A stretch of 64,000 nt of DNA from NCBI GenBank assembly GCA_045539625.1, contig JAZQFS010000016.1:2971-66970 (forward strand), in the 5' to 3' direction. Within the stretch, counting starts at the first letter, position 1. Every line of letters begins with the position of its first letter. The notes below the pieces were generated by a model. That model was given only the letters and a program-made list of their open reading frames with translations, was not told where the DNA came from and made no database searches. The translations under genes were made by a program, and so were the position numbers. This stretch comes from Eubacteriales bacterium (GTDB taxonomy: Bacteria; Bacillota; Clostridia; Oscillospirales; CAG-382). Positions 1,463 through 63,857 of this stretch are shown one piece after another.

Positions 1463-4400
1463 ATGAAGGATATATTTGATTACGGCGATGAGCTTAAGAG
1501 CATCGATCCCTTTGGCGATATTTTTGACGACGACGGCAATTTCAAGGACAAAATTTGTGATGAAGATGACACAGACAACGAAGAAAAAGCACTTGATGTG
1601 TTAAGAAATCTTCCTCTGCCCGCTTTACATTCAACCTCTCGGGAGCAGTTCAAGTCCCGCGGTCTTATTCCAAAATTCAATGATGAAGACGACCTTCTTG
1701 ACAGACACGGATTGTTTGAATACACACATTTTTGCGGCTATGTAACAGAGAAAAGCGTTGATTTTTCTTGTGCCGTATATTTTAAAATCCGTACCGATGA
1801 TTGCAAAACACAGACTGTACGCACCTCTTCTCTTACCGAGCTTCAGGTGAAAAAGGCAAACAGCCGTGAAAAAATCCACGTAATCGCAAATAAAAGAAGC
1901 GGTGTTTATATTGCAAAAATCATATGCACCCACGCTTTTTATAAAATGTTCTCTCTTATTGAGGGCAATGCAGAAAAGCTGTCGGCAATGAGCCGCTTTT
2001 TAAGACTTGACAAGGACGTGCGAAAAAACATAGAAACTCGTCTGGGTGAAAAAAAGTACAGCCTTGTTGATGAAAAAAACAGTGTTGCAGTTACCGACAA
2101 GGATATCCTCAGACTTAAGTACGATATGTGCAGAAACACCTTTACACCCTCTCAGCAAAGAGAAATTGACACTCTTTTCTCACAGAGAAGCGGTATAAGA
2201 AGCAAGGTTGACAAAAAGCTTGAGTATATTCTCAACATTTCATCTGTTTACCACGGCAGAAAAAAGGTGGACAGAAAAAAGCTTATGGCAGCCCTTGACT
2301 CAAAGCTTTACAAGATGGATAAGGTGAAAAACAAGCTTTGCGACTGCATTACCTCATCTTATCACACAGGCAAAAGAGGCTTTCGCATACTTCTTGCAGG
2401 CTCATCGGGCACAGGCAAGACAACAATTGCAAAGGCTGTTGCACAGGGCTGCGGTCTGCCATTTGACGTTATCAATTTAAACGGCGTTATGAGTGCTATT
2501 GACATAAAAGGCATCGATGCTTCCTATGACAGTGCAGATTGCGGAAAGCTTGTAAAAAGCTTTTACGGCATGAGAACAACGGAAGGAGTGGTTGTCCTTG
2601 ACGAAATCGACAAGATGGGCACAGGGGGTAAGGACGGCAATCCTGCCGATGCACTTCTTGACTGCCTTTCCGACCACAACAGCTGTTACGATGCCTTTCT
2701 TGAAATGGCGCTTGATACCACAAATACCGTGTTTATTGCAACGGCAAACTCCACAGAGAACATTCCCGACTACCTTCTCAACCGCTTTGATGTAATACAT
2801 ATTGACGATTACACAGACGAAGAAAAGTGCGACATCGGCGAAAAGTATTTTGTACCCGAAATTCTCTGTGCCTACAAAGTGAAAAAGGGCGAAATTGTCT
2901 TTACAGGACAGGCACTTGAAAAAACGGTAAGCCGCTATTGCAGTGACAGAGGCGTGAGAATGTTAAAGGAAAACATCAGAACGGTAGTGCGTAAAATACT
3001 TGTTATGTGGGACGAGTGCGGCAAAAGAGCAAAGATGACGGTAACTGAACGGTTTATAGAGGACGTGCTTGAAGGTTTATATGACGAAAACGACGTGTTC
3101 CTGCGCTTTGCACGTAATAAGGACCGTCTTGATGACGGTGTGCGTACAGAAATCAGAAGAACGCTTGACGAGCTTAATGTGATGGGAAAAACAGCTTCGG
3201 AAAAGGAAAAAATCAAAAAAAGAGCAGGCTATCTCACCTCGCTCATTCCCGACAGATGCGGCTTTGACAGCTTTGACAGAGAAAGATATTTTGCTTCCGT
3301 CAACGCAACCCACTACGGTCTTGACAGCGTGAAGGAACAGGTTTCAAGACTTATGTGTGCAAAGGCTTTGTCCAAAAACACAAAGCTTTCCTCCTGCCGT
3401 ATTCTTCTTGCAGGTCCTGCAGGAACAGGCAAGAGCACCATCTGCAAGAGCATAGCTGACGGTCTGGGTATTCCCTATATCAAAATCTCCCTTGGCGGAG
3501 TAGGAGACGAGGCGGTAATAAAGGGCTTTTCTCCCACCTATGTTGATGCAGATGCAGGTGAAATCGTAAAGGGACTTTCCCGAGCAGGCACAACAAACGC
3601 ACTTATCCAGCTTGACGAAATCGACAAAACAGGCTCACGCCACGGTGTCAACGCAGGCAATGCACTGCTTGATTTACTTGACAACTGCAACGGCTTTGCC
3701 GACAGATTTTTGGGCGTGCCCATAGACCTTTCGGACGTGCTGTTTGTGGCAACGGCAAACGATATTTCAAATATGGAGAGCTGGCTTTGTGACCGCTTTG
3801 ACATAATTCACATTGACGGCTACACAAAAAACGAGAAAAAGCACATTCTTACCCGATGCATTATTCCTTCACTTTGCCGTAATATGTCGGATGACTCGCT
3901 GAAGATCACCGTCACAGACAAGGCATCAGAGCTTCTTGTGTCACGCTACTGCACCTCAATGGGTGTAAGAGACCTTGAAAAGGCGGCACGCAGAATTGTC
4001 ACCGACAAGCTGTATAACGGTGCTTGCGGCAGTATTGAAATTGACGAAGAAGATGTTGTTTCCTCGCTTGGAGCACTGCCTATACAGAGAGGCAACCTTG
4101 TTTCTCAGGCTGTCCCCGGTTTTTCAAAGGCTCTTGCGGTTTCAGGTGCAAACAGCGGCATGGCGTTTTCCGTTGAAACGGTTATCACTCCCGACGAGGG
4201 TGCAACAACGGTAACGGGACTTCCCAAGGAAAGCACCCTTGACAGCGTGAAAATCGCAAAGACATATGTAAGGCTTAACTATATGAAAAACAAGCGTGAT
4301 TTCGGCTTGCACCTTCATTTCGGAGAGGGTGCTGTGGTAAAGGACGGTCCTTCGGCAGGTACGGCAATAGCAATTTCCATACTGTCTGCGGTAAGCGGCA

Positions 4401-19322: not shown

Positions 19323-20774
19323 ATGGCAGACAAGAAACAGGTTGAACAGATTACCTCAAGGGATACCGACTTTGCACAGTGGTATACCGACATAGTTAAA
19401 AACGCAGACCTTGCTGATTATTCCAGCGTAAAGGGCTGTATGATTATCCGTCCCTACGGATATGCTATCTGGGAAAATATCCAGAAAATCATGGACACAC
19501 GCTTTAAGGAAACAGGACATGAAAACGTATATATGCCCATGTTCATTCCCGAAAGCCTTCTCAACAAGGAAAAGGATCACGTTGAAGGCTTTGCACCCGA
19601 AGTTGCATGGGTAACACACGGCGGAAGCGAGCCTCTGACAGAGCGTCTTTGCGTTCGTCCCACCTCCGAAACACTTTTCTGCGAGCACTTTGCAAAGATT
19701 ATCAATTCCTACCGAGATCTTCCCGTGCTTTATAACCAGTGGTGCAGCGTTGTAAGATGGGAAAAGACAACAAGACCTTTCCTCAGAACAAGAGAATTCT
19801 TGTGGCAGGAAGGACATACAATGCACGCAACTGCAGAAGAAGCAAGAGCAGAAACACTTCAGATGCTTAACATTTATGCCGACGTTTGCGAGCATGACCT
19901 TGCAATGCCTGTAGTAAAGGGACCCAAGACTCCCTCCGACAAGTTTGCAGGTGCTGAGGATACATATGCCATTGAAGCACTTATGCACGACGGTAAGGCA
20001 CTTCAGGCAGGTACATCTCACTACTTCGGCGACGGCTTCGCAAGAGCATTTGACATCACCTACAAGTCAAAGGACAACAAGGACGAATATCCTCACCAGA
20101 CCTCATGGGGTACAACCACCCGTCTTATTGGTGCCATCATTATGACACACGGCGACGACAACGGTCTTGTGCTTCCTCCTGCAGTAGCACCTATTCAGGT
20201 TATTATAGTTCCCGTTGCACAGCATAAGGAAGGCGTGCTTGAAAAGGCTCGTGAGCTTCACGACAAGCTCGCCGCCTGCGGCATCAGAGTAAAGACAGAT
20301 GACAGCGACAACAGCCCCGGCTGGAAGTTTGCTCAGTACGAAATGAAGGGTGTACCCGTAAGAATTGAAATAGGGCCCCGTGACATCGAAAACGGACAGT
20401 GTGTTGCGGTTACCCGTCACAACGGCGAAAAGACCTTCCTTTCACTTGACAATATGCTGGAAGACTTCAAGGACGGCGTACTTGCAAAGCTTGAAGAGGT
20501 AAGAGAGGGTATTTACAACATAGCTCTTGAAAACCGCAAGAAGCACACCTACAACTGCACAACCATGGACGAAATCAAGGACGCTCTTGAAAAGAACGGC
20601 GACGGTTTTGTTCGTGCTATGTGGTGCGGCGACGAAGAATGTGAAGACACCGTAAAGGCTGAAACAGGTGTTGGCTCAAGATGTATTCCCTTTGAGCAGG
20701 AAACACTCAGCGACAAGTGCGTATGCTGCGGCAAGCCTGCAAAGAAGCTGGTTTACTGGGGTAAAGCGTACTAA
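19323..20774 (+). CDS. proS: proline--tRNA ligase (archaeal/eukaryote-like class IIa form)
   Basis: [25 protein letters not shown], class II motif 3 region, C-terminal Zn cluster CGDEECE...CVCCGKPA...YWGKAY. Confidence 0.92.
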
Positions 20775-20819
20775 TAGTTGGTTTTATTGCAATAAAAAAG
20801 CCAATACCGTATCAGGGTA

Positions 20820-20848
20820 TTGACAAAATTGAAATTGCAGTATATAAT
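20820..20848 (+). promoter_or_regulatory. consensus sigma-A promoter (TTGACA-17 nt-TATAAT)
   Basis: TTGACA 20820-20825, 17-nt spacer, TATAAT 20843-20848. No protein gene lies downstream on this strand. Confidence 0.7.
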
Positions 20849-20854
20849 AAAGAT

Positions 20855-20942
20855 ACAAGGCAAGACCCATTGCGGTTGTGCCAGAATGAATTGATTAAAA
20901 TAACCGCTACATTTTGGCTGATGGGGCGGTTATTTTACTTTT
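20855..20942 (+). ncRNA. candidate antisense sRNA (type I antitoxin-like); may read through to the weak terminator at 21117-21142
   Basis: It starts about 7 nt after the consensus -10. The hairpin AAAATAACCGC (20897-20907) / GCGGTTATTTT (20926-20936) is followed by ACTTTTAT. It is fully complementary to the 3' end of the minus-strand peptide ORF. Confidence 0.45.
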
Positions 20943-21001
20943 ATACAAAGTAAAAATGTGAGAAAAAACAATAAAAGGAAAAACCTTATGTATTTCCACA
21001 T
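20930..21001 (-). CDS. 23-aa hydrophobic peptide MWKYIRFFLLLFFLTFLLCIKVK (type I toxin-like)
   Basis: SD AAAGGAGGTG (complement of 21007-21016) lies 5 nt upstream of the ATG. One transmembrane helix with a basic KVK tail. The ORF has its own consensus promoter. Confidence 0.5.
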   Translation of the reverse strand: MWKYIRFFLLLFFLTFLLCIKVK

Positions 21002-21086
21002 AGCACCACCTCCTTTACGGAGCGTGGCACAACCGCCGGTAAAAAACCGATAATGGTCTTGCCTCGGCTGAAGCTTCAGCGAGACT

Positions 21087-21115
21087 ATTATACACCGATA
21101 TGAAATAAAAGTCAA
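21087..21115 (-). promoter_or_regulatory. near-consensus sigma-A promoter (TTGACT-17 nt-TATAAT) for the small-peptide mRNA
   Basis: Complement of AGTCAA 21110-21115 and ATTATA 21087-21092, with a 17-nt spacer. Confidence 0.65.
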
Positions 21116-21144
21116 CAGCGCCGATGGGCGTTTTATTTTTTTGT

Positions 21145-21177
21145 GCAAAAAAGACTGTTTCAAAGCGAAACAGTCTT
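21145..21177 (-). terminator. intrinsic terminator of the rlmA-like gene
   Basis: Minus strand: AAGACTGTTTC GCTTTG GAAACAGTCTT followed by TTTTTT. Confidence 0.8.
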
Positions 21178-21182
21178 GATTT

Positions 21183-22004
21183 CTACACTTTTTTGTAAAC
21201 CAGAATCCGAAAGAAAGCCGAAACATCAAGCTCCTTCAGTTCCTTCAGCTTTTGCACGCCTTCCTTTGGAGTTTTCCAGGTGTAGGGCGTCATATGAAAC
21301 AGCGCCTGTATGTGCTCGGCGTTGTCAAGGGTAAAGCTTGACGACACGCAGTGTGTGCCTGTCAGCTCAAAGCCGTCGTATTCTTCTGTTTTGACGGGGT
21401 TTTTGTAGGGTACATCATATAACACCTGCTTAAGCTCCCACAGATGGTCTGCGTCCGGTACTACGTAAAGAAAATATCCGCCCGTCTTTAACACACGTGA
21501 AAATTCCTCGGCGGCAAGGGGCGAAAAGCAGTTGACAATTATGTCACAGCTGTTGTCGGACAGCGGCAGGTGATACACCGATGCCACCGCAAATTCTCCA
21601 CCGTCACATACCTTTGCAGTATGCTTTACGGCATCTTTTGACAGGTCAATTCCCACAACCGCGCCGTTTTTGCTTTTTGCAACAAGGCTGTAGGCACTTG
21701 TGTAATAGCCCTCACCGCAGCCTGCATCAAGAATTACCCCTTTATCGGGGCAATACTGCTGTAAAAGTGAGCACATTTTGTCACGGAGCGGCTTGTAATA
21801 TCCGCCTTCAAGAAAGCCTGTGCGTGCTCTTATCATATCCCTGCCGTCCCCTGAGCCTTTTTTTGTATGCTTTGACGGAGAAGTTAGATTGACATAGCCT
21901 TCCTTGGCAATGTCGAAAAGGTGACCGTTCCCGCATTTGTAAGCACCGTCCTGCTTTGAAAGGTTGGCACGGCACACGGGACAGGTAAAAATATTATCCA
22001 ACAT
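21183..22004 (-). CDS. 23S rRNA (guanine-N1)-methyltransferase, RlmA/RrmA-like
   Basis: N-terminal Zn ribbon CPVCRANL...YKCGNGHLFDIAKEGYVNL and SAM motif ILDAGCGEGYY. Confidence 0.75.
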   Translation of the reverse strand: MLDNIFTCPVCRANLSKQDGAYKCGNGHLFDIAKEGYVNLTSPSKHTKKGSGDGRDMIRARTGFLEGGYYKPLRDKMCSLLQQYCPDKGVILDAGCGEGYYTSAYSLVAKSKNGAVVGIDLSKDAVKHTAKVCDGGEFAVASVYHLPLSDNSCDIIVNCFSPLAAEEFSRVLKTGGYFLYVVPDADHLWELKQVLYDVPYKNPVKTEEYDGFELTGTHCVSSSFTLDNAEHIQALFHMTPYTWKTPKEGVQKLKELKELDVSAFFRILVYKKV

Positions 22005-22209
22005 TTTTCATTCCTTTGGGTAAAGTTTATTATATTATAATACAAAAGATATAAAAAGGCAAGAGAAAAAGATGAAGGCTGATAAAAAAACAAAGGTGAA
22101 AGATGCCAAGGCAAAAAAGTTAAAATTTGTCCTGTTGTTATCGGTTTTTGGCTGGAACAAGCGGGGCTTATGTGGTATATTGTATACGTAAAGTATGGGA
22201 GGTTTTACT

Positions 22210-24087
22210 ATGGACTTTAGAAAAATGGCTGAAAAGCTTGTTTCCCAAATGACTCTCGGTGAAAAGATGGCACAGATGAAGTTTGAAGCGCCTGCAATTG
22301 AAAGACTGGGCGTTCCTGCCTATAATTGGTGGAACGAAGGCTTACACGGCGTTGCACGTCAGGGTACGGCGACGGTGTACCCTCAGGCAATTGCCATGGC
22401 GGCAAGCTTTAACGATGAGTTACTTCAGACGGTGGGCGACCAGATAAGCACCTAGGCGAGAGCCGTTTACAATCAATATAAGCAAAACGGCAAAACGCAG
22501 CGGTATGAGGGCATTACAATCTGGTCTCCCAATATAAATATTTTCCGAGATCCCCGCTGGGGCAGAGGACACGAAACCTACGGCGAAGATCCCTATCTTA
22601 CGGCACGTATGGGAACAGCCTTTGTAAAAGGTCTTCAGGACGACGGAAAATACCGCAAGGCTGACGCTACGCTTAAGCATTATGCCGTTCACAGCGGTCC
22701 TGAGGCGTACAGACACGGCTTTAATGCCATCGTCAGTGAAAAGGATTTGAGAGAAACCTACCTTTGGGCATTTAAATACTGTATAGAAAACGCTCACCCT
22801 TCGGCGGTTATGGGTGCATACAACAGAACAAACGGCGAGCCTTGCTGTGCAAGTAAAACTCTCCTGCAGGATATACTCCGTGATGAATGGGGCTTTGACG
22901 GCTATGTTGTAAGTGACTGCGGTGCAATACGTGATATCCACGAAAACCACAAGCTTTGCGAAAATGCGGCTCAAAGTGCGGCACTTGCGGTAAATAACGG
23001 CTGTGAGCTTAACTGCGGACAGGCGTACTCATACCTTATGGCGGCATACGAGCAAGGACTTGTAACGGAAGAAACAATCACCGAGGCGGTTACAAAGCTG
23101 TTTACGGCACGCTTCAGGCTTGGAATGTTTGCCGACGACTGCGAATTTGACAATATTTCCTATGACGTGGTTGAATGTAAGGCACATAAGGAAACAAACC
23201 GCAAGATGGCACAGGAAAGTATTGTGCTTCTCAAAAACAACGGCATACTTCCCTTAAAGGAAAATGCACGTGTTGCGGTAATCGGTCCCAATGCCGACTC
23301 ACAGACAATGCTTCTGGGAAATTACAGCGGTCTGCCCTCAGACTATTACACACTTCTCAGAGGAATACAGCAGTACAGCGAAAACGTGAAATATTCCCTC
23401 GGCTGTCATATTTACAATGAAAAAATGCACATAGATAAGCTTCGTTCAAGTCTGAGAGAGGCCGAAATGGTTGCCAAAAATTGCGATGTTGTGATTATGT
23501 GTATGGGAATCGATCCCACTTTTGAGGGGGAAGAAGGAGACAGCTTTAATCAGTCTGCCGCAGGTGACAAGCTTGACCTTGAGCTTCCGCTGTCACAGAA
23601 AATTCTGTATGACACCATCATAAAGCTGGGCAAGCCCGTAGTTTTTGTCAACGTCAGCGGAAGTGCCATAAATCTTAAGGCACAGAAACAGCAGTGCGAT
23701 GCGGTAATTCAGTGCTTTTATCCCGGTGCCATGGGAGGACTTGCACTCGGTGACATCATTTTCGGCAAGGTAAGCCCGTCGGGACGTCTTCCCGTAACCT
23801 TCTATGAGTCGGTGGACGACCTGCCCGACTTTAAAGACTATTCCATGGAAAACAGAACCTACAAGTTCTACAAGGGAACGCCCGTCTTTGAGTTCGGCGA
23901 AGGACTTACATATTCCGACATTTGCGAAGAATGGCTTGACGAGAGCACCGTAAAAGTAACAAACAACGGCTCTTTTGACACAGCCTACACGGTGCTGAGG
24001 TTTGAGTACATACCTCACAAGAGCCTTTGCGGTTTTAAGAAGATTTTCCTGAAGAGCGGCGAAAGCATTACCGTAAAATTTGAATGA
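22210..24087 (+). pseudogene. glycoside hydrolase family 3 (beta-glucosidase/xylosidase-like) interrupted by one in-frame TAG at 22453-22455
   Basis: ORFs 22195-22455 and 22609-24087 are in the same frame. Read through the TAG, the translation is continuous GH3 sequence (...VGDQIST*ARAVYN...SPNINIFRDPRWGRGHETYGEDP...GYVVSDCGA...). The stop sits where I recall GH3 homologues having Glu. Confidence 0.75.
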
Positions 24088-45584: not shown

Positions 45585-45613
45585 ATTATATACCACATTT
45601 GGAACAATGTCAA
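45585..45613 (-). promoter_or_regulatory. consensus promoter of the VbhA-Fic-(STAND) operon
   Basis: Minus strand: TTGACA, 17-nt spacer, TATAAT. Confidence 0.65.
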
Positions 45614-45655
45614 TGTTTATAATTTTCCAAAGTGTAAAAATTAGTGCAAGTTACA

Positions 45656-46279
45656 TTATTCCTTAACTGTATCTAAATTCAGTGCAAGTCTTGCAGTATT
45701 TCTGTCTTTAAGACTTGCCTTATCATATGCTCTTGCAACCTCATACGCATTTGCAGAAAGCTCACTTGGCATATATGCTTTGCCGCCTGCCCACACTTCG
45801 AGCGGTACATTCAGCGTTTCTGATAACTGCATTGCAATAGGAAGAGGTGCGTCCTTCATCCTTCGGGTTATAATAGAACGTACTTGTCTGTCGGTAAGCC
45901 CGGTAACTCTTACAATATCGGAAATATATAACCCCATTTTCATTGTTACCTCAATGAAAATCTTGTAAAAAGGAAGACCTTCAAGCTCGTTGCATAACTC
46001 TTCGTACACTGCTTCCGATTCGGTATCACCCAAAAGGTAATCAACTGAAACCTTTAATTTTTCGGCATACTTGCTTACCTGTTCAATTTTGGGTGAACGC
46101 TGTCCAAGCTCGTAACGGCTGAGTATCTGTTTTGAAGTACCAAGCATTTTAGCAAATTCATCTTGCGAGAGCCCTTTTTCTTTACGAAGTTCTCGTAGTC
46201 TTTCTCCAAACGAAGTAAAATGCAAATCCACATCGGGCAGGCTGTCTATAACAGCCTGTTCTTTTTTGCTGTCATTCAT
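45656..46279 (-). CDS. XRE-family HTH regulator (repressor-like) with a C-terminal domain
   Basis: FGERLRELRKEKGLSQDEFAKMLGTSKQILSRYELGQRSP. The ATG at 46279 is preceded by AAAGGAG. Confidence 0.8.
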   Translation of the reverse strand: MNDSKKEQAVIDSLPDVDLHFTSFGERLRELRKEKGLSQDEFAKMLGTSKQILSRYELGQRSPKIEQVSKYAEKLKVSVDYLLGDTESEAVYEELCNELEGLPFYKIFIEVTMKMGLYISDIVRVTGLTDRQVRSIITRRMKDAPLPIAMQLSETLNVPLEVWAGGKAYMPSELSANAYEVARAYDKASLKDRNTARLALNLDTVKE

Positions 46280-46389
46280 ATCACTCAAACTCCTTTGTTT
46301 GTAATTCTGCACATATCTACATACATATTATAACTCATTAAATCCACATTGTCAATATCTTTTGTAAAATTATATGAATTTGTCGACAA

Positions 46390-46437
46390 ACGGTTGACAA
46401 ACGGCGAAATATACTGTAAAATAGCATTGTCAACCGT
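46390..46437 (+). promoter_or_regulatory. promoter (TTGACA-17 nt-TAAAAT) bracketed by an 11-bp inverted repeat; candidate XRE operator
   Basis: ACGGTTGACAA 46390-46400 and TTGTCAACCGT 46427-46437. -35 at 46394-46399, -10 at 46417-46422. Additional direct GACAAACGG copies are present. Confidence 0.55.
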
Positions 46438-63435: not shown

Positions 63436-63789
63436 TGGTGGAGGCGGCGGGAATCGAACCCGCGTCCGAAAATCCATTCATACACCTTTCTACGAGCGTA
63501 GTTTGTTGTTAAAATTCCCCTCACAGCCCATCAACAAACAAACGGGCAGGGAAGGTAGCTTCATAAGTTCATGCCACGGCTCAAAGCTTTGCCATGTTCA
63601 CGTTCACTGCTAATGTGACACCGAGTTTCGGGCCGCAGTACTCCCGAAGTCGATGACGCCGCACTTAGGCAGCGTAAGCTAATCTGTTATTGTTAGCGTT
63701 TATTTTTAGTGTGTGGCGTTTTAAAGAGCTTCCACAACCTCTGCTCGCTTAGCATACTTCAAAATCCCCGTCGAAACCTTGGCGCCCCC
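63436..63789 (-). ncRNA. ssrA: transfer-messenger RNA
   Basis: Minus strand starts GGGGGCGCCAAGGTTTCGACGGGGATTTTGAAG and ends GCGGGTTCGATTCCCGCCGCCTCCACCA. The internal tag reading frame GCT AAC AAT AAC AGA TTA GCT TAC GCT GCC TAA gives ANNNRLAYAA. Confidence 0.93.
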
Positions 63790-63828: not shown

Positions 63829-63857
63829 ATTTTACCATTTATATCGACGGCTGTCAA
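63829..63857 (-). promoter_or_regulatory. ssrA promoter
   Basis: Minus strand: TTGACA, 17-nt spacer, TAAAAT, about 40 nt upstream of the mature 5' end. Confidence 0.6.

Follow-up and report, generated by a model that had tools for sequence, protein, structure and literature searches.

Type I toxin-antitoxin (TA) loci escape standard annotation. One of them, txpA/RatA, is found in the skin element of Bacillus subtilis, and its 59-residue product, TxpA, belongs to the TxpA/BsrG peptide family (also summarised in PMC6563280). Probing of the 296-nucleotide (nt) bsrG mRNA has shown that nt 1 to 35 pair with nt 232 to 262 in a sub-divided helix, P1, which carries the stem-loops SL1 to SL3 on top; the Shine-Dalgarno (SD) sequence is held in a 4-bp stem, SL2 has the start codon at its base, SL3 has the stop codon in its 5' part, and the RNA ends in a terminal terminator (PMC3834814). 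Binding of the antisense RNA SR4 renders the 5' arm of bsrG single-stranded and lengthens the SD stem from 4 to 8 bp; SR4 both promotes RNase III-dependent decay of the mRNA and inhibits its translation (PMC3834814). Here, we describe a locus of similar design in a 64,000-nt stretch of DNA (referred to below as the window) from contig JAZQFS010000016.1 of an Eubacteriales bacterium assigned to the Oscillospirales (assembly GCA_045539625.1). It occupies the 409-nt gap between the convergent genes proS and rlmA and is predicted to consist of an mRNA for a very short hydrophobic peptide and an antisense RNA. The elements of this locus, their conservation in two species, the covariation and the predicted folds, all shown by computation, make it a credible new type I TA-like locus, and we estimate at about 0.7 the probability that it represents a chromosomal type I TA-like module of the bsrG/SR4 design. 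The novelty lies in the peptide, which matches no known family, and in the host group; the principle itself is already known.

The gap is bounded by the gene for a class II prolyl-tRNA synthetase (ProRS, proS; positions 19323 to 20774, plus strand) and the gene for an RlmA-type 23S rRNA methyltransferase (rlmA; 21183 to 22004, minus strand). Homologues of RlmA led to two informative contigs. In the first of these (L085), which comes from the same species (99% identity in RlmA), the element is unchanged, while the second (L086; GCA_045646465.1), from a sister species with 97.7% amino acid identity in ProRS and 77% in RlmA, carries the element in the same rlmA-proS gap with ~80% nucleotide identity. 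Conservation, as discussed below, refers to the comparison of the window with L086. The gene calls on these two contigs list neither the peptide nor the RNAs. A first-pass annotation made from the sequence of the window had described this gap as containing convergent consensus promoters, an SD-led minus-strand open reading frame (ORF) for a 23-residue hydrophobic peptide, complementarity between the 5' leader and the 3' region of its transcript, and a short antisense RNA ending at a hairpin and U-tract. Each of these features holds up in the analysis that follows, which adds to them an intrinsic terminator on the minus strand (stem at 20824 to 20800) and another one on the plus strand (stem at 21117 to 21132).

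The two promoters face each other in the gap. The putative promoter of the peptide (toxin) mRNA, TTGACT-17-TATAAT, is located at 21115 to 21087 on the minus strand and matches the consensus in 11 of 12 positions, whereas the putative promoter of the antisense (antitoxin) RNA, TTGACA-17-TATAAT at 20820 to 20848 on the plus strand, is a perfect match (12/12). Across the entire window, there are 14 sites with at least 11 of 12 matches, as compared with 2.3 +/- 1.6 in shuffled sequences, an approximately 6-fold enrichment, so that sites this strong are mostly real promoters. In L086, both promoters match the consensus in all 12 positions (the toxin one being TTGACA-17-TATAAT), with the hexamers kept and the spacers altered.

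The ORF extends from the ATG at 21001 to the TAA at 20930 (minus strand) and encodes a peptide of 23 amino acids, MWKYIRFFLLLFFLTFLLCIKVK, with a grand average of hydropathy (GRAVY) of 1.53 and a net charge of +4, the charges being divided between the N terminus (KYIR) and the C terminus. It is preceded by the SD sequence AAAGGAGGTG at 21016 to 21007 (minus strand), in which GGAGG is located 7 nt 5' of the ATG. Outside the large ORFs, this is the sole SD-preceded ATG ORF of 15 to 60 amino acids in the 64-kb window with a GRAVY of at least 1. The orthologue in L086, MKYIRIIIYIIIFVFIAFTFSIKVN, consists of 25 amino acids and has a GRAVY of 1.76. Relative to the window ORF, it has lost 3 nt and gained 9 nt without a shift in frame, and it retains the SD sequence, the ATG and the stop codon; the two peptides are 45% identical, with the KYIR...IKV ends and the hydrophobic core conserved. 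Substitutions in the first, second and third codon positions number 8, 2 and 6, respectively, and this sparing of the second position is suggestive of selection for hydrophobic residues. Searches of Pfam, NCBIfam, PADLOC and PHROGs revealed no significant family for the peptide, and a BLASTP comparison with BsrG produced no alignment at E values of up to 100.

The predicted toxin mRNA is ~287 nt long (20794 to 21080, minus strand), the ends being placed according to the -10 box (5') and the terminator (3'). Its minimum free energy is -98.8 kcal/mol, and the corresponding 291-nt RNA of L086, folded separately, shows the same architecture. Compared with shuffled sequences, the fold of the segment from 20853 to 21090 yields z scores of -8.3 and -8.2 for the two strands, and none of the 200 shuffles folds as well. 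Going from the 5' end, the predicted mRNA includes a 5'-terminal hairpin, the 5' arm of a long-distance helix H1, a small hairpin, the 5' arm of a second helix H2 and the SD hairpin; these are followed by a start-codon hairpin, the ORF, a stop-codon hairpin, and the 3' arms of H2 and H1; the last part consists of ~31 nt that carry the antisense promoter and of the terminator, which overlaps the antisense -35 box.

The complementarity between the 5' leader and the 3' region resolves into the two helices H1 and H2, which together show one compensatory pair and three wobble-compatible changes. H1 consists of 12 pairs between 21066 to 21055 and 20867 to 20856 and contains three one-sided changes in L086, all of which still pair (G-U to A-U, A-U to G-U and C-G to U-G) and which would be mismatches if read on the plus strand. 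H2 consists of 13 pairs between 21036 to 21023 and 20884 to 20872 and includes the compensatory change (G-C to A-U; alignment columns 58 and 206). The 3' arms of both helices (20856 to 20884, minus strand) are nearly invariant, with a single change that is the partner in this compensatory pair; read on the plus strand, this DNA codes for the 5' hairpin of the antisense RNA. Between H1 and H2 lies the small hairpin (CGG-loop-CCG; 21037 to 21049), whose stem is conserved and whose loop varies in length and sequence. The SD-sequestering hairpin CUCC-GUAAA-GGAG (21010 to 21022) is invariant in both species and aligns to SL1 of the Rfam BsrG model. The hairpin that starts at the stop codon (20896 to 20937) is predicted on both strands, being on the plus strand the terminator hairpin of the antisense RNA, followed by ACTTTTAT; it shows one compensatory change from A-U to U-A. 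The 5'-terminal hairpin GCUGA-AGCU-UCAGC (21067 to 21080) has an invariant stem and a loop that changes from AGCU to UUAU in L086. An apparent covariation outside this hairpin (CUC/GAG to CUU/AAG) was discounted, as the bases are probably located upstream of the transcription start.

In the consensus structure, all 62 pairs are intact, with four one-sided compatible changes and two compensatory ones (in H2 and in the stop-codon hairpin). Of the pair cells in the two sequences, 124 of 124 are standard pairs on the minus-strand RNA and 6 become C-A mismatches on its complement; it is thus the peptide mRNA whose structure is under selection. Outside the ORF, the two sequences differ in 6 of 100 paired columns and in 14 of 53 unpaired ones (Fisher's exact test, p = 0.0007). 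The 3' end of the H2 5' arm, GUGCCAC, has an alternative pairing that lengthens the SD stem: when folding is constrained to keep the antisense-complementary stretch single-stranded, GUGCCAC is released and pairs with GUGGUGC beside the SD sequence, giving a predicted SD stem of 11 bp in the window and of 8 bp in L086 instead of 4 bp.

The motifs GGCGGUU and AACCGC(C) are each present twice in the toxin mRNA (at 21036 to 21030, 20930 to 20924, 20908 to 20902 and 20877 to 20872 of the minus-strand RNA) and are conserved in L086; speculatively, they could permit alternative, possibly co-transcriptional pairings. The Rfam BsrG alignment pairs the 5' GGCGGUU with the stop-codon-proximal AACCGCC, mirroring the inner part of bsrG P1.

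The predicted short antisense RNA is ~91 nt long (20855 to 20945, plus strand; both ends are inferred) and is predicted to fold into two hairpins joined by a linker, the first at its 5' end and the second being the terminator hairpin, after which comes ACUUUUAU. Its entire length is complementary to the 3' part of the toxin mRNA, a stretch that takes in the last five codons as well as both 3' arms, and its predicted fold is identical in the window and in L086. A terminator scan skipped the window hairpin at 20896 to 20937 (with its loop of more than 8 nt) but called the equivalent hairpin in L086. The toxin mRNA has its own intrinsic terminator at 20794 to 20824 (stem plus T tract), with the stem preserved in L086 through a U-A to C-G change. 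The plus-strand terminator (21117 to 21142, stem plus T tract), which adjoins the toxin -35 box, has a conserved stem and a different loop in L086, and would halt a read-through (~288-nt) form of the antisense RNA ahead of rlmA. The module spans ~350 bp and, with its own terminator on each strand, is a self-contained unit.

From these features, we infer transcription from both promoters, the transcript ends, translation and toxicity of the peptide, a role for RNase III and a switch in the SD stem, which could work together as follows. The sigma-A-type promoter at 21115 to 21087 would direct synthesis of the ~287-nt mRNA for a 23-residue cationic membrane peptide with charged ends. By itself, this mRNA would be nearly untranslatable, being locked by H1 and H2, with a GC-rich stem of 4 bp enclosing the SD sequence and the next hairpin containing the start codon. 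The presumably stronger, perfect-consensus promoter at 20820 to 20848 would produce the ~91-nt antisense RNA, complementary to the 3' part of the mRNA, and their pairing would create a long duplex, presumably an RNase III substrate, leading to decay of the mRNA. The same pairing would strip the 3' arms from the 5' leader, allowing the freed GUGCCAC to zip onto the SD stem, which at 8 to 11 bp would block ribosome binding even further. Loss of the antisense RNA would then be expected to raise peptide synthesis and result in membrane damage or depolarisation.

With respect to the generic features of type I systems (as laid out in T1TAdb, PMC8594479, and by Fozo et al. in 2010, PMC2887945), T1TAdb specifies an mRNA of 150 to 400 nt, a toxin of 20 to 60 amino acids, an antisense RNA of 60 to 200 nt, SD/anti-SD pairing and a 5'-3' interaction (PMC8594479). 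The proS-rlmA locus combines a short mRNA (287 nt as predicted) with a small hydrophobic protein that has a predicted transmembrane stretch (23 amino acids, 25 in the orthologue); judged by sequence features, it has an antisense RNA of the proper size (~91 nt) with its own 12/12 promoter and a conserved hairpin, and the translation-blocking cis elements (SD/anti-SD pairing, a 5'-3' long-distance interaction, and stem-loops at the 5' and 3' ends) are all predicted in both species. The hallmarks of the bsrG/SR4-type mechanism, namely, targeting of the 3' part, release of the 5' arm and extension of the SD stem, are reproduced in silico.

The first-pass annotation had likened the layout to both bsrG/SR4 and txpA/RatA. 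The former likeness proved apt with regard to the architecture, as each feature of the published bsrG structure has its counterpart in the predicted fold. In both cases, the two genes converge, with an overlap that lies in the 3' part of the toxin mRNA; this mRNA, ~290 nt long (287 predicted here, 296 in bsrG), forms a long sub-divided 5'-3' helix topped by stem-loops; a 4-bp GC-rich stem contains the SD sequence, the stem-loop after it has the start codon at its base, and the one after that has the stop codon in its 5' side; and a terminal terminator closes the RNA. The SD stem lengthens in both (from 4 to 8 bp as measured in bsrG, from 4 to 8-11 bp as predicted here), and the antisense promoter is the stronger one, which in the window is judged by the consensus match (12/12 versus 11/12). 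There are also differences. The peptides are unrelated (23 to 25 amino acids here versus 38 in BsrG); the antisense RNA of ~91 nt lies wholly within the transcribed region of the mRNA, whereas SR4 is ~180 nt long; the long helix is separated from the terminator by ~31 nt with the antisense promoter inside, as opposed to 1 nt in bsrG; there is an additional 5' hairpin; and the host is an uncultured member of the gut/rumen Clostridia, in which the site is not a prophage.

At the level of RNA families, the Rfam BsrG model (RF01412; 259 positions, gathering threshold of 55 bits) is the only one that matches the element with a small E value. On the minus strand, it scores 32.5 bits in the window (E = 4.9e-6 in 551 nt) and 19.7 bits in L086 (E = 0.02), both below the threshold, as compared with 210 bits for bsrG of SPbeta. 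The two matches are in the same register and cover only model positions 25 to 154, that is, the leader stem, the SD hairpin, the start codon and the stop-proximal pairing. Given these subthreshold scores, as well as the absence of a reciprocal match with the covariance model (R1) that we built from the window and L086 sequences, the unrelated peptides and the lack of a fitting peptide family, membership in the BsrG RNA family is not established, and "BsrG-like" refers here to architecture only. It is unlikely, although conceivable, that the mRNA scaffold (leader, SD stem-loop, stop-proximal pairing, 5'-3' helix and 3'-targeting antisense RNA) is nevertheless homologous to that of bsrG, with the peptide having shrunk and diverged beyond recognition. 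If so, there would be an RNA-level superfamily that spans a Bacillus prophage and chromosomes of gut Oscillospirales, and type I TA families might be traceable by mRNA architecture where peptide searches fail.

The likeness to txpA/RatA held in part. The toxin mRNA and the antisense RNA are convergent with overlapping 3' ends, the peptide is likewise hydrophobic and predicted to be membrane-bound, and in txpA/RatA, control is also thought to run via duplex-triggered mRNA decay; however, no similarity to TxpA was found, and the Rfam RatA model has no match at E values of up to 10. Two proteobacterial systems, hok/Sok and aapA1/IsoA1, resemble the locus in that the full-length toxin mRNA is locked by 5'-3' pairing and the SD sequence is held by an anti-SD sequence (Masachis and Darfeuille, as cited in PMC8594479). 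Their antisense RNAs target the 5' region and 3' trimming activates the mRNA, whereas here the 3' part is targeted (PMC8594479); the peptides are unrelated. The type I systems of Clostridioides difficile share with the proS-rlmA locus the class Clostridia and the combination of a small hydrophobic, charged toxin with a cis-antisense RNA (PMC6563280, PMC5961336). Their toxins are longer (34 to 59 amino acids) and mostly encoded in prophages or next to CRISPR arrays, often with Sigma-B promoters (PMC6563280), as opposed to the proS-rlmA site and the consensus sigma-A-type promoters seen here, and there is no sequence similarity. In the literature searched, type I systems of Clostridia are described for C. 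difficile only (PMC6563280), with none for the Ruminococcaceae-type gut/rumen anaerobes.

Several observations weigh against the interpretation of the locus as a type I TA-like module. The two sequences that gave rise to the consensus structure are also those used to score it; they are the only two distinct sequences, and the covariation amounts to a few events. On the bsrG locus of SPbeta, R1 scores at most 7.4 bits, with a non-homologous alignment (R1 comes from two close sequences), and it finds no further copy in either the window or 745 kb of related DNA, so that the element is single copy in the window. The locus is outside any recognisable prophage or island. The codon position bias is suggestive at most (p = 0.07), and the conserved N- and C-terminal codons show zero synonymous changes, which means that the constraint there could act on the RNA. 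Only three residues follow the hydrophobic core (KVK in the window, KVN in L086), and the peptide, at 23 to 25 amino acids, is shorter than the listed toxins of B. subtilis (28 to 60 amino acids) and C. difficile (34 to 59 amino acids) (PMC6563280). Finally, the 3' end of the antisense RNA is ambiguous: this RNA may be ~91 nt long or, by read-through to the second terminator, ~288 nt.

Among the alternatives, it is unlikely, although conceivable, that the product is a non-toxic small membrane protein under cis-antisense control, such as a modulator of a membrane complex, the level of which is tuned by the antisense RNA and the mRNA fold. The comparative evidence points to a translated hydrophobic peptide with sense and antisense RNAs rather than to toxicity as such, the locus is chromosomal, single copy and located between housekeeping genes, and many type I toxins typically have a longer polar tail at the C terminus than this peptide. 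Nonetheless, the hallmark of toxin control is the combination of three layers of repression, provided here by the long-distance helix, the SD stem and the hairpin at the start codon, with an antisense promoter that is at least as strong as the sense one. In addition, the presence of the module in two sister lineages and its absence from the next relatives fit an accessory element better than a core membrane subunit, and the fast evolution of the transmembrane sequence (45% amino acid identity, compared with 97.7% in ProRS) argues against a specific protein partner.

Still less probable is the possibility that only the RNAs matter, as a non-coding sense/antisense pair or as a single ~288-nt plus-strand small RNA (from 20855 to the terminator at 21117 to 21142), the ORF being fortuitous in a T-rich stretch. 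Such RNAs would account for the distribution of identity between the window and L086, which is 89% in the part shared with the short antisense RNA, the best-conserved segment, 85% in the 5' leader and 65% in the ORF; the plus strand folds almost as well (z of about -8.3) and has its own conserved terminator, and the conserved codons lack synonymous changes. On the other hand, GGAGG is ideally spaced from the ATG and both are invariant, the start, stop and hydrophobicity are kept, neither indel disturbs the reading frame, and the second codon positions show the fewest changes. Moreover, it is only with the minus-strand RNA that the G-U pairs and one-sided changes are compatible; on the plus strand, 6 pair cells break, and no Rfam family matches that strand. 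The notion of an inert intergenic spacer, in which terminators of the convergent genes are accompanied by chance promoter-like hexamers, is effectively excluded by the pattern of conservation. The region does lie between convergent genes and does contain terminators, but rlmA has a separate terminator hairpin at 21148 to 21180, hexamers matching in 12/12 and 11/12 positions are rare by chance and are preserved in L086 despite the spacer change, and conservation is much higher in the element than in the flanking terminators (64 to 77% identity) and in rlmA (about 76% at the nucleotide level).

Two further candidates were considered and rejected. The end-to-end helix is reminiscent of a 6S-like or other housekeeping RNA, which the first-pass annotation had named as an outcome that would speak against its proposal. 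Rfam detects no family at the gathering threshold on either strand of the region and no match to 6S RNA (RF00013) or any other housekeeping family at E values of up to 10, and the ORF shows coding signals. A leader peptide or attenuator was rejected, as there is no same-strand downstream gene and the mRNA stops at its own terminator before proS.

With regard to its distribution, the module appears, as far as searched, to be a lineage-restricted accessory element of two sister species. In 80 proS loci from GTDB species representatives (uncultured Oscillospirales/Eubacteriales, with the best ProRS at 87% amino acid identity), neither an adjacent rlmA nor the element was detected in a single case. 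It is also absent from the contigs of the next clade out, with 90 to 93% identity in ProRS, and from genera with ~60% identity in RlmA. Searches of phage and plasmid collections with blastn and tblastn found nothing similar, although the low-complexity filter probably blunts the peptide searches, and pattern scans of viral contigs had no match. A pattern scan of metagenomes (SD sequence plus 8 wobble-free codons) gave four matches in marine and lake contigs, all of which were dismissed as chance, being signal peptides or non-coding sequence. The R1 model, which has a short reach given that it was built from two close sequences, recognised just three copies (in the window, L085 and L086) across 745 kb of related loci; its weak matches in two others (L033 and L022) correspond to a generic terminator and an unrelated coding region. 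With respect to the covariation search suggested by the first-pass annotation, the pairs are kept in two species, two of them through compensatory changes, and no additional copies came to light in these loci. No record matches either the ProRS or the RlmA sequence of the window exactly.

If confirmed, the locus would represent a new toxin family with a very short peptide (23 to 25 amino acids) and a second, independent example of the bsrG/SR4-type dual mechanism that combines decay with tightening of the SD stem. A second case of this kind would suggest that the design is either ancient or easily reinvented. Such a compact, self-insulated module with consensus promoters could also be of use in anaerobic Firmicutes, either as a portable kill switch under RNA control or as a cassette for counter-selection.

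The surroundings of the element differ somewhat among the three contigs. In L085 (positions 3100 to 3775), ~620 nt are inserted in the rlmA terminator hairpin and flanked by a duplicated ~25-nt copy of the hairpin. This insert, which is either an assembly chimera or a small insertion, holds most of a called 155-residue ORF (3053 to 3520) that has no Pfam match. The same contig contains a 953-residue ORF that joins an HsdM-like N terminus to ProRS. In L086 (2800 to 3098), there are ~320 extra nt between the terminator of the element and proS, with two copies of a ~35-nt hairpin-forming repeat, CGTCGGTTGGTGCAAA(T/G)ACGACCTTTACGAGCACC, similar in appearance to repetitive extragenic palindromic (REP) sequences.

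Elsewhere in the window, the gene for a GH3 glycoside hydrolase (22195 to 24087) is broken by an in-frame TAA (stop codon at 22453 to 22455). In L085 (97.7% identical), this codon is GAA and the 625-residue gene is intact; the interrupted gene may have become a pseudogene or carry a strain-specific nonsense mutation, or the TAA may be a sequencing error. The G+C content falls from ~0.45 to 0.28-0.39 across the last ~26 kb (approximately 38000 to 64000), up to the tmRNA gene, ssrA (63436 to 63789, minus strand), which has an 11/12 consensus promoter at 63857 to 63829; this low-G+C stretch beside ssrA may be a horizontally acquired island. Within it, three sigma-70 sites are clustered at 45585 to 46422 about an ORF at 45656 to 46312 (minus strand). 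Two of them, at 46355 to 46327 and 45613 to 45585 on the minus strand, match the consensus in all 12 positions and the third, at 46394 to 46422 on the plus strand, in 11 of 12; of the three, those at 46355 and 46394 are divergently oriented as a pair.

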